DNA of 64,000 bases from Escherichia phage FL31. Shown here one piece after another: positions 38,569-42,033 of the stretch. The position numbers were made by a program, and so were the translations under genes. The stretch lies in sequence record PP400782; one strand, written 5' to 3'. Under the pieces are notes generated by a model, which ran no database searches, was not told the DNA's origin, and was given only the letters and a program-made list of their open reading frames with translations. How positions within the stretch are numbered: the first letter of the stretch is position 1; every line of letters starts with the position of its first letter.

Positions 38569-38979
38569 TTATTCCTTAAAATGTGCTTTCAACATTTGAT
38601 ACAAAGACCATGCCTGGTCGTTATTTTCGATAGTAATCGTCATCACCGGAAATTCAGACAATTCGTCAAGTTCACTAGAATCTTGCTCTTCGGACGCTTG
38701 ATACGGATTTCCAACTTCGTCAAAGAACTCTGCTTCATTCGTGGAAAGCCAGATAAAGTTTTCATCAAGAATATCACCGCCTGTTGCGTATCCAACCATG
38801 CCGGTAGATGTCACAATTTTAGTAGGACGACCAAGATGGTCAACATCTAATACTTTAAATGGTTCCATGCCAAGACGTCGTGCATAAATCCCATTATCAG
38901 TATGGTCTTTAATAAACTCTTCTTGGGCACGTTTATCTTTAAATTGGTACCACGAGTTAACGCGGAATTTATTAGCCAT
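38569..38979 (-). CDS. hypothetical protein (start at MANKF; track start is TTG)
   Basis: ORF; start overlaps upstream stop (TAATG). Confidence 0.45.
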
Positions 38980-39206
38980 TAGTAAGTTTCCTTCCAATAA
39001 GTTGTACCGTTTTCAGTGATTTCACGGAAGATACCATAGATAGGCATTTCATCACCAAGTTTTTCGTAAACGTAAACCACTTCGGTGTAGCATAAAAATC
39101 CGGTCCAGCTTTTCTGTACAACAACTAAATCAGGATTAAACAGAACATCTTCAAACTCATCGATGTTTGAATCAGTAGTTACGTTTTTAATGATTTGACG
39201 TTTCAT
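38979..39206 (-). CDS. hypothetical protein (75 aa)
   Basis: ORF with AGAGGAG SD. Confidence 0.4.
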
Positions 39207-39263: not shown

Positions 39264-39788
39264 TCATTTTAGCAAAATAAAATCAACTTGTTCTGCCAAT
39301 GAACGTCTAAACATTAATTGACAACTTCCGAGGATGAAATCAGGTGCTTCATAGACCGCGATGTAGTATCCTTTAGCTTTCAAGAGTTCAACATCTACCT
39401 GGTCATCAAACCATGCATAAACCGCGTCAACGCTTTCAAATCCAAAATAGAACCCTTGAGCCCAATCTTCACTCAATTCAAATGTGTACTCAATTCTATG
39501 GTATCTTAAGATATTTTGTTCAAGAAGTTTGTCTTCATTTACTGTAGGACGATTAGGGACATTATAGTTGTCGCCGTGATGGTAGAAGTTACCTGAGAGT
39601 ATTCCATGCTTATCAAGGAACTCCCATGTTTCTTCAGAGTTGTCAGTGCCGGACCAACCATAAGGTGAGCGAGGTTCTTTATTCCAAGAGGTTTCCCAAA
39701 TTCTGACGGCTTTACCGTCTTCGATAGCAATTCCTGGTAATGATTCACGTTGAGTACAAAAACTACGTTCTACGCGGTAAACTAACAT
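39264..39788 (-). CDS. hypothetical protein (174 aa)
   Basis: ORF with GAGGAG SD. Confidence 0.45.
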   Translation of the reverse strand: MLVYRVERSFCTQRESLPGIAIEDGKAVRIWETSWNKEPRSPYGWSGTDNSEETWEFLDKHGILSGNFYHHGDNYNVPNRPTVNEDKLLEQNILRYHRIEYTFELSEDWAQGFYFGFESVDAVYAWFDDQVDVELLKAKGYYIAVYEAPDFILGSCQLMFRRSLAEQVDFILLK

Positions 39789-39814: not shown

Positions 39815-39843
39815 ATAATATCAAAACCAGAGGAGAAGTAAAC
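39815..39843 (-). promoter_or_regulatory. early promoter-like element (-35 GTTTAC, -10 TATTAT) nested in a 12-bp inverted repeat that includes the downstream SD
   Basis: Minus strand GTTTACttctcctctggttttgaTATTATaaccatatcaaccagaggagaataatATG. Confidence 0.45.
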
Positions 39844-39847
39844 AACT

Positions 39848-40267
39848 TTATGCGAAAGCAGCTGGGCTATATTTTTTAATTTGGAATTCAGGAACTACCA
39901 TGAACTGACCAGCGAAAACGATGTTATAAAGCTTAACACCATCTTCTACCCAACGGTCGCTAATAAATCCGGCGATTTGCTTAGTTTTCCATGGCGTTCC
40001 ATCAGTTGCCGCAGCAATAGTGAATTCATGGTCTTTTTCAACAGAAACTGATCTGCATAGTCCCCATTTGAACGCTTTTTCTTCTGGCTCAATGAACTGG
40101 CTTGAGACGTAGCCAATATTACCATTAGCATCACGAACTTTAACTTGGTTACGACCAAAAACCGGATCACTCACAGAAAGAACTTCAACCAACTTCCCGG
40201 CAACTTTAGAGCGAGAAGCAACAGATACATATACGTAATCACCTGTAGAGAGATTTACAATATTCAT
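39848..40267 (-). CDS. hypothetical protein, member C of a triplicated paralog family
   Basis: Shares VSVASRSKVAGKLVEV and RWVEDGVKLYNIVFAGQF with the two adjacent ORFs. Confidence 0.5.
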   Translation of the reverse strand: MNIVNLSTGDYVYVSVASRSKVAGKLVEVLSVSDPVFGRNQVKVRDANGNIGYVSSQFIEPEEKAFKWGLCRSVSVEKDHEFTIAAATDGTPWKTKQIAGFISDRWVEDGVKLYNIVFAGQFMVVPEFQIKKYSPAAFA

Positions 40268-40276
40268 AATAATTCC

Positions 40277-40732
40277 TTAAGCTTTACGAGGAGACACGTA
40301 GCGAGTGATTTCAGATTCTTTAACAACTCGGAAGTCACCTAAGAATACGATATTGTATAACTTTTCACCATCTTCAACCCATTGGTCACTGATGAAGCCG
40401 CACATAATATCAGTTTTGTTTGGATAACCATATTCGTCGATGAAATCAAATTCTTTATCAGTCCGGAATTCAACGCCTTTGCAAAGGGCCCATTTGAACT
40501 GTACATTAGGTTCAGTAGAAGCAAAATGAGCGCTCACATGAGTTTCCAAGAATTTAGGACTTACGTAAGCGTACTGAGTTTCAGTTTTTCCAGAACTAGG
40601 AATGATTCGAACTTTAACTTCTTTAACACGACCAGTACCATTAGTACGAAGTCCTACCACTTCAACTAGACGACCTGCAGCTTTAGAACGAGATGCAGAC
40701 GATACACGCTTAATTTCACCAATAGTAATCAT
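40277..40732 (-). CDS. hypothetical protein, member B of a triplicated paralog family (start at MITIG with GAGAGAGA SD)
   Basis: VSSASRSKAAGRLVEV and DQWVEDGEKLYNIVFLGDF. Confidence 0.5.
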   Translation of the reverse strand: MITIGEIKRVSSASRSKAAGRLVEVVGLRTNGTGRVKEVKVRIIPSSGKTETQYAYVSPKFLETHVSAHFASTEPNVQFKWALCKGVEFRTDKEFDFIDEYGYPNKTDIMCGFISDQWVEDGEKLYNIVFLGDFRVVKESEITRYVSPRKA

Positions 40733-40794
40733 AATTTCTCTCTCTTTGTTTAAGTTGAATTCATTATACTCCATCCGTCCTTGGATGTACAACA

Positions 40795-41289
40795 TTAATT
40801 AAGGATATTAACCACAGCACTACGTGGAACTACACTAAAATCACCTGCATGAACTACGTTCAGAAGTTCAACACCGTCTTCAATCCACTGATCAGTTACC
40901 CATCCATTTACTGGACCAGCGAATGGGCGTCGAATTGAAACATATTTACACAACAAATCAGTAGGCTCAATAGGCTTAATCAGAGTACCGTACATACAAG
41001 CGATATCCATATCAATACAGATATCTTTAACGGGTTCTACTTCTTCAATCAACAGTTCAAAGTCGGTGCTTGGAATGGCGGTAGTAGAAATTGTACCATA
41101 TGAATTTTTAATTTCTAAGAATAACCAAGGGCCTTCGGCTTGTTTGATGAAGTTAACAATAGTGAAACTATTACCTTGAGTGGCGCCTAAAATTTCACAA
41201 AACTTTTCATAAGCTCGCACTGAAGCACCGTACCAGTTAATTTGTTTTTCGTCTTTCAGGATGTAAGTAGCCGTAGTATTGATATTCAT
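40795..41289 (-). CDS. hypothetical protein, member A of a triplicated paralog family
   Basis: C-terminal DQWIEDGVELLNVVHAGDFSVVP shared with the two downstream ORFs. Confidence 0.5.
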   Translation of the reverse strand: MNINTTATYILKDEKQINWYGASVRAYEKFCEILGATQGNSFTIVNFIKQAEGPWLFLEIKNSYGTISTTAIPSTDFELLIEEVEPVKDICIDMDIACMYGTLIKPIEPTDLLCKYVSIRRPFAGPVNGWVTDQWIEDGVELLNVVHAGDFSVVPRSAVVNILN

Positions 41290-41355
41290 AATGTTTTTCC
41301 TGTTTGGTTAGGATAGAAAGATTATACTCCAACCGTCCTTGGTTGTAAACTGGTT

Positions 41356-42033
41356 TTATCGCTGTTTTACACTTAACGGGTCAGGATTCTCAGGGACATC
41401 TTCAAGGCCAAGCGCATAACGCTGAGCATATTTTAACATCAAAATATCTTTAGCACAATCATGAATACTATCATGGGCAACGAATCCTTTTAGCGCACCC
41501 ATCGGTAATGGACACATACTTAATCCTCGTGTCAACGAGTAAGCTTCGATTGCCGTACGAATATCGCGTTGAGCCCAGAATTTAACAGGTTCTAATTTAT
41601 CGGTATCAATATCTGGTTCAAGAACACCTTCATCACGATAGAGGTCACGAATCAAATCGACCAAGATCGGGAAGTCAAAGCTCATACCACGGCACCACAT
41701 CTGTGATTTCCATTGGTCAACTTTATTAGCTCGACAATAATCTAAAAAGATTTTAATGCCTTCAAGCGTAGTGACATCGTCTTCAGACGGGGCCAAGTTT
41801 TTACGCGCTTCCGCCGATTGTTCTTTCCACCATTTCATAGTGGATTTAGCGAAAACTCGCTTCCCTTTCTGAGAAGCTAAATTAAATTTAATTCGCTTAC
41901 CTCGTTGAACAAGTTCTTCAAATGATTCAACAACTTCAGGGTCGGAATTATATGCAATAACCGCAAGATCAATAACAGCCGCTTTTGATGTATTGCCGAA
42001 TGTTTCAAAATCTATAATAACATCAGTGCTCAT
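41356..42033 (-). CDS. dexA: exonuclease A (DexA), DnaQ-like 3'-5' exonuclease
   Basis: 225 aa; N-terminal IIDFETFG exonuclease motif; synteny next to dda. Confidence 0.85.
   Translation of the reverse strand: MSTDVIIDFETFGNTSKAAVIDLAVIAYNSDPEVVESFEELVQRGKRIKFNLASQKGKRVFAKSTMKWWKEQSAEARKNLAPSEDDVTTLEGIKIFLDYCRANKVDQWKSQMWCRGMSFDFPILVDLIRDLYRDEGVLEPDIDTDKLEPVKFWAQRDIRTAIEAYSLTRGLSMCPLPMGALKGFVAHDSIHDCAKDILMLKYAQRYALGLEDVPENPDPLSVKQR

Follow-up and report, generated by a model that had tools for sequence, protein, structure and literature searches.

MotB of phage T4 is toxic to Escherichia coli, binds DNA tightly and regardless of sequence, whether the DNA is unmodified or contains glucosylated hydroxymethylcytosine, is co-purified with H-NS and StpA, and raises the burst size two-fold (PMC6070864). 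In the host, T4 MotB alters the H-NS footprint and de-represses H-NS-regulated genes, with 75 host genes going up, about a third of which belong to the H-NS regulon (PMC7827196). MotB and MotB.1 have a common C-terminal domain and different N-terminal domains, possibly of duplication origin (PMC7827196, section 3.2, Patterson-West et al. 2021), and the same work reported that phage RB69 has two motB genes and one motB.1 gene. The N-terminal domain of MotB.1 has an LSm-like fold that is also found in GoF and Frd.2 (PMC12152347). The literature thus already covers this gene family with its common C-terminal and variable N-terminal domains, as well as the RB69-type arrangement of three genes (PMC7827196, PMC12152347). 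Here we analysed three adjacent open reading frames (ORFs), ORF1, ORF2 and ORF3, in a 64-kb stretch of Escherichia phage FL31 (sequence record PP400782), referred to below as the window. With considerable confidence, we read them as the motB.1, motB and second motB genes of an RB69-like phage, early and non-essential host-takeover genes with the roles proposed below.

The three ORFs are present where the original prediction, made from the letters of the window, had placed them, and all are on the minus strand: ORF3 (164 amino acids, 40795-41289) is the motB.1 orthologue, ORF2 (40277-40732; 151 amino acids from the ATG at 40732, or 172 from the first ATG at 40795) is the motB orthologue, and ORF1 (139 amino acids, 39848-40267) is the second MotB paralogue. 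BLASTP showed that ORF1 and ORF2 are 43% identical over their whole length (E value 2e-31), an alignment that includes the N-terminal VSxASRSKxAGxLVEV block which had been noticed in two of the copies. The similarity of ORF3 to the other two was confined to its final 30-36 residues, with 16 of 29 residues identical to ORF1 in the C-terminal block (E 1e-10) and 16 of 36 identical to ORF2 (E 3e-10). All three proteins passed the curated cutoff of 25 bits for Pfam PF17613 motB (ORF1, 75.6 bits; ORF2, 131.7 bits; ORF3, 35.0 bits), ORF3 through residues 84-159 and only with the C-terminal half of the model. When a profile of the shared module was run against the six-frame translation of the window, it recovered exactly these three copies (E 6e-30 to 6e-24; next E 1.7), and hhalign matched the C-terminal domain of MotB with that of MotB.1 over 50 columns (probability 99.3%, E 4e-20). 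Taken together, the results bear out the predicted C-terminal module. In the predicted motif, however, ORF1 has DRWVEDG and not DQW, and what is homologous is an entire domain of about 55-75 residues rather than a stretch of 19.

ORF1 and ORF2 have the two-domain architecture of MotB, in which a KOW/SH3-like N-terminal domain with S-R-S-K-A-A-G is followed by a C-terminal domain with DQWVEDG..LYN.VF.G. ORF3 lacks this architecture, having an unrelated N-terminal domain, and therefore belongs to the MotB.1 subfamily; indeed, it aligns with T4-type MotB.1 across the N-terminal domain. With hhalign, the MotB N-terminal domain had no detectable sequence relation to that of MotB.1 (probability 0.0, E 0.83), and comparison of N-terminal with C-terminal domains gave no signal of an internal duplication. 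The two N-terminal types found in MotB.1-like proteins, that of the 143-169-residue form and that of the form of about 180 or 250 residues, matched each other with a profile-profile probability of 93.9%. In AlphaFold2 models of ORF2 and ORF3, built from family alignments, a disordered linker separates two beta-rich domains, and the modelled C-terminal domain is a five-stranded unit with a long first hairpin in MotB but a short one in MotB.1. The trio is modular: one small beta-rich C-terminal domain is combined with a KOW/SH3-like N-terminal domain in ORF2 and ORF1 or, in ORF3, with an LSm-like one that is acidic and unrelated to it. A tandem triplication with divergent N-termini, as first proposed, finds no support, since full-length duplication is confined to ORF1 and ORF2. 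Because the N-terminal domains show no sequence homology while the C-terminal domains match at 99.3, we interpret the difference between the N-termini of ORF3 and MotB as domain shuffling, not as divergence of one ancestral N-terminus. Other combinations occur elsewhere in the family: Klebsiella and Enterobacter phage relatives have a KOW-type N-terminal domain fused to a MotB.1-type C-terminal domain, one protein (P0104) has a T4-type MotB N-terminal domain with an ORF1-type C-terminal domain, and in some relatives the N-terminal domains are duplicated or additional.

Searches beyond the window point to a narrow MotB family. The C-terminal domain profile gave 28 matches among 1.84 billion representatives, 26 of them small proteins of phage type whose sequences are recognisably of the MotB family, and this search found the module in no protein outside the MotB family. 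Two long repeat proteins among the 28 matches (P0242 and P0244) look spurious. ORF2 had no match in the PDB by sequence (best E 0.88), and Foldseek against viral models returned, at E < 1e-3, nothing but MotB-family proteins of T4-like phages. Phage DCP80 (141 kb) was considered as a match outside the Tevenvirinae and rejected, as it is a Gaprivervirus and still belongs to the Tevenvirinae.

ORF2 is 95% identical to RB69 MotB (P0006) and, in the aligned part, 48% identical to a T4-type MotB representative (P0094). It consists of a basic KOW/SH3-like N-terminal domain (residues 1-62; net charge +8, isoelectric point 10.7), a disordered linker and a C-terminal domain (residues 78-151; net charge -3), and its model has a predicted local distance difference test score (pLDDT) of 84. 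The 151-residue protein is the likely product and the 172-residue start at the first ATG is probably not real, because a promoter-like site lies inside the 21-codon extension, Met1 of T4 MotB aligns with the ATG at 40732, and a 2-nucleotide indel in phage SHSML-52-1 brings stop codons into the extension. The length of about 151 residues that had been predicted is thus the better one.

ORF1 is the counterpart of RB69p010 (NP_861700), and T4 has no such gene. It matches phrog_1671 (E 7e-51) and is 37% identical to MotB of T4 strain GT7 by tblastn. Its N-terminal and C-terminal domains are both of the MotB type, follow each other with almost no linker and have a net charge of +1 each, so that the protein is near-neutral. 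At 80% identity or more, the ORF1 type was found in 207 of the 777 phage records with any match, and it is present in Tequatrovirus RB10, in which the order is motB.2, motB.1, motB, motB'.

ORF3 matches phrog_2333 (E 8e-83) and, over 99% of its length, shares 47% identity with an intact MotB.1 of the T4 type (P0116). It has an LSm-like N-terminal domain (about residues 1-84), a label taken from the MotB.1 study (PMC12152347) and carried to ORF3 by orthology, then a disordered linker and a MotB-type C-terminal domain (about residues 109-164). The latter is the short MotB.1-type domain (PTDLLCK..RRPF..GWVTDQWIEDGVELLNVVHAG), the columns of which are nearly invariant in the family alignment. In the AlphaFold2 model (pLDDT 79) the N-terminal domain folds as a beta-sheet accompanied by helices, and residues 86-103 fall below 50. 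The protein is acidic, with an overall net charge of -9 and an isoelectric point of 4.5. Its linker contains the motif CIDMDIACMYGTLIKP at about residues 90-105 (window 40975-41022), and a 21-residue insertion in this linker, absent from T4 MotB.1, holds the DMDIACMYGTLIKP motif. A conserved pattern, (I/V)-D-x-D-(V/I)-x-x-M-Y-x-T-x-(I/L)-x-P (DxDVxxMY), present also in P0134-P0216 and P0232-P0241, lies in a segment predicted to be disordered. It occupies the linker in ORF3-type proteins and in distant KOW-type members, and the extreme N-terminus in the MotB.1-like proteins of 180 or 250 residues. The pattern has the look of a portable short linear motif for interactions.

By orthology to T4 MotB, ORF2 would be an abundant product of an early promoter and would coat the DNA of host and phage alike, whatever its sequence. 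Such coating would remodel the nucleoid, loosen silencing by H-NS and StpA, and improve the phage yield. DNA compaction and H-NS de-repression are reportedly also dealt with by Son et al. 2021 (NAR 49:9229, as cited in PMC13096335). The predicted label of host takeover is right by homology to T4 MotB, and countering xenogeneic silencing by H-NS could be counted as an anti-defence role. Judging from its charge, the basic N-terminal domain may be the main seat of non-specific DNA binding, and the charge pattern would thus put the likely DNA-binding surface in the N-terminal and not in the shared C-terminal domain. Throughout the trio the C-terminal domain has a neutral to acidic charge, and we therefore read it as a common module of interaction or self-association, by which the paralogues may act on, or assemble at, one target. 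ORF1 would then be a compact form of MotB with little charge, and ORF3 (MotB.1) an acidic adaptor with no DNA binding of its own.

Several points weigh against these roles. The function proposed for the trio is carried over entirely from T4 MotB, and ORF2 shares the 48% identity mentioned above with the T4-type representative. Knockdown of motB in T4 barely alters the T4 transcriptome, and burst size gains no more than a factor of about two; T4 lacking motB.1 shows no laboratory phenotype (PMC12152347). In the published view either domain may bind DNA, and the C-terminal domain is a cold-shock-type OB-fold (PMC7827196, section 3.1), against which the charge pattern would be weak evidence. A serious rival therefore has the OB-fold or cold-shock-like C-terminal domain itself bind nucleic acid, so that all three would be DNA- or RNA-binding proteins that differ in their accessory N-terminal domains. 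We consider this possible, though doubtful. If the C-terminal domain is instead an interaction module, as we prefer, it might serve hetero-association: basic MotB, the neutral second MotB and acidic MotB.1 would form one nucleoid-bound complex, in which the linker motif and the dosage of the paralogues adjust compaction or bring in a host factor. We regard this extension as unlikely; if it is true, the trio would be a small phage-encoded chromatin system and not three redundant copies.

The original prediction took the divergent N-termini as a sign of diversifying selection. For the estimates we compared orthologues and not the three paralogues, as synonymous sites among the latter are saturated at identities of 43% or less. 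The sample comprised seven Mosigvirus genomes (the window phage, LF82-4, SHSML-52-1, RB69, JS09, ST0 and AV110), with RB69 excluded from the ORF3 estimate because its copy is broken. The ratio of nonsynonymous to synonymous differences per site (pN/pS), from pooled pairwise Nei-Gojobori comparisons of 6-7 genomes in which single selected sites could be missed, was 0.12 for ORF3 (motB.1), 0.22 for ORF2 (motB) and 0.18 for ORF1 (second motB); among the other genes of the locus it was 0.05 for dexA, 0.13 for the motB.2-like gene, 0.07 for cef and 0.17 for goF. Within the paralogues, values were 0.06-0.18 for the C-terminal domains, 0.13-0.29 for the N-terminal domains and 0.34-0.53 for the linkers, and no gene, domain or linker in these 6-7 genomes showed an omega above 1 (pN/pS 0.06-0.53). 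With pN/pS low throughout, all three genes are therefore kept by purifying selection. At this resolution the idea of diversifying selection finds no support, as nothing in the gene estimates of 0.12-0.22 comes near 1.

The same estimates bear on the proposal that the three genes form an array of diversifying anti-defence effectors, with a different host defence target for every copy. The locus is indeed mosaic. The synonymous divergence (dS) of ORF1 and ORF2 is 0.25-0.33, two to four times higher than the 0.07-0.15 of the flanking genes, and the segment from the C-terminal domain of motB.1 through motB' (window 39843-40968) is 83% identical to RB10 1569-2725, as against 69% for dexA. Exchange of cassettes between T-even genera at the trio locus is suggested. 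The motB.2-like gene is placed differently in RB10. The shuffled combinations of N- and C-terminal domains among phages and the variable copy number, with no ORF1 in T4, would also suit an effector array. We nevertheless hold such an array to be quite unlikely, as pN/pS is far under 1 in each gene and domain, as no PADLOC or anti-defence link emerged, with no search aimed at one, and as the member that has been studied targets DNA and H-NS and no dedicated immune system (PMC6070864, PMC7827196).

A further alternative sees in ORF1 a redundant duplicate that is heading for loss, its similarity to MotB having no separate functional meaning. T4 and many Tequatroviruses do without ORF1, which is shorter than MotB and without its basic charge. 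However, those 207 records, with RB10 of another genus included, carry an intact copy with at least 80% identity, and its pN/pS of 0.18 comes with constraint on both domains, which makes this alternative very unlikely. That the motif is shared by mere chance or through low complexity, the outcome of pairwise alignment that the original prediction had named as its possible refutation, can be dismissed, since the similarity is significant in the pairwise comparisons (E 1e-10 to 2e-31), the Pfam scores above cutoff and the profile-profile match (E 4e-20). We therefore retain the assignment as motB.1, motB and a second motB. As a finding this matters little; what is added to the published picture, for specialists, is purifying selection and domain shuffling among the paralogues, the charge pattern with the DNA-binding surface that it would indicate, and the frameshift in the T4 reference motB.1 described below.

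The order of genes at the locus is dda, dexA, ORF3, ORF2, ORF1, a motB.2-like gene, cef and goF. The trio is thus placed between dexA (exonuclease A; 41356-42033, minus strand), at the upstream edge of the cluster, and cef (38979-39206, minus strand; Pfam T4_Cef, 115.7 bits), at the downstream edge, as expected for the MotB family in the dispensable early region of T-even phages. The trio region shares 98.6% identity with Escherichia phage LF82-4 and with many other Mosigvirus genomes, and the source of the window is, judged by its sequence, a Mosigvirus, that is, an RB69-like T-even phage. The same gene set in the same order was found in RB69, LF82-4, JS09 and AV110, and GenBank relatives carry these genes as MotB-like regulators. 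In T4 the order is dexA, motB.2, motB.1, motB, cef, and the ORF1 counterpart is absent. The motB.2-like gene of the window (174 amino acids; 39264-39788, minus strand; phrog_1106, motB.2 in the RB69 annotation) differs in position from its T4 namesake, which is upstream of motB.1; it had no Pfam match and does not encode a MotB-domain protein. A protein of 43 residues (P0243) starts with a T4-type MotB.2 N-terminus, MKIYRVESSFSIL, passes straight into the end of the MotB.1 C-terminal domain, EDGVELLNVVHAGDFSVVPRSAVVAILN, and appears to be the product of a deletion that fused motB.2 with motB.1 in some phage.

Two strong and nearly identical promoter-like sites were found on the minus strand, one upstream of ORF3 at 41321-41349 (TTTACA-17-TATAAT, 11/12) and one upstream of ORF2 at 40763-40791 (TGTACA-17-TATAAT, 10/12), the latter inside the 172-residue reading of ORF2. 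Both have CCAAGGACGG(T/A)TGGAGTATAAT, and the spacer repeated in the two sites exceeds what the -35/-10 consensus requires. We take them to resemble the early-promoter pattern of T4. A third promoter-like site precedes the motB.2-like gene. ORF1 begins 9 nucleotides after ORF2 with its own ribosome-binding site (AAGGAA), and there is no promoter-like site in this 9-nucleotide gap; therefore, ORF1 is probably co-transcribed with ORF2. In Enterobacteria phage Kha5h (NC_054905.1, 31225-31716), an 'ori type 2 repeat' is annotated under the motB gene.

The motB.1 gene is broken in the reference records of both T4 and RB69. In T4 (NC_000866.4/AF158101.6), an extra G (TGGATTGGAAGATGG vs TGGATTGAAGATGG) cuts MotB.1 to 119 amino acids. 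The affected sequence lies at about 2222-2320 and 2295-2310 of NC_000866.4 on the minus strand, which corresponds to window 40798-40890, and the missing 29 residues can be read in another frame (E 3e-14). T4 GT7 has a single G at this site, and an intact, one-piece MotB.1 of 143 amino acids is encoded in 13 other T4 or T4-like records, including T4T, T4 GT7, MT984581, RB55 and RB59. Among the T4-type records compared by tblastn (GenBank phages), motB.1 is split in the reference only; exact-pattern scans of IMG/VR found neither variant of the site. The 119-residue MotB.1 of the T4 reference owes its length to a frameshift artefact or a private mutation. In the 2025 study of MotB.1, motB.1 was synthesised, NC_000866.4 was cited for the constructs and a 13.8-kDa monomer was reported (PMC12152347). 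From the mass and the record cited, that study therefore probably used the 119-residue form, and negative results from the short T4 MotB.1 may need repeating, as other deposited T4-type genomes encode 143 residues. In RB69 (NC_004928, 3877-4373, minus strand), the 132-residue motB.1 and the 29-residue RB69p012 are one gene with two 1-nucleotide insertions relative to ORF3, a break that is either a sequencing error or a mutation of the laboratory strain. The 29-residue 'Category 3' peptide in the RB69 literature is the tail of this broken motB.1.

Among described systems, T7 gp5.5 and T4 Arn are, like MotB, early phage proteins that relieve silencing by H-NS (PMC7827196). They have no relation to MotB in sequence or fold, and they bind H-NS directly, whereas MotB associates only when DNA is present. 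T4 MotB (NP_049626; PF17613 'modifier of transcription') is much closer: it aligns with ORF2 from end to end, has the same succession of KOW-like N-terminal domain, linker and C-terminal domain, and has its gene among the same early neighbours, between dexA and cef, ORF2 being likewise preceded by a promoter-like site. The linker of ORF2 is shorter, ORF1 is nearly linker-free and without net positive charge, and T4 has a single copy; the biochemical findings are those for T4 MotB. T4 MotB.1 in its intact form of 143 residues (NP_049627; GoF/Frd.2/MotB.1 family) shares with ORF3 the LSm-like N-terminal domain and the short C-terminal domain, most of which has been lost through the frameshift from the annotated reference protein of 119 residues. 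RB69 (NC_004928) has the same genes in the same order, namely RB69p013 (motB.1), p012 (the 29-residue ORF), p011 (motB) and p010 (MotB-like). Unlike the RB69 motB.1, which is broken into ORFs of 132 and 29 residues, ORF3 of the window is intact with 164 residues.

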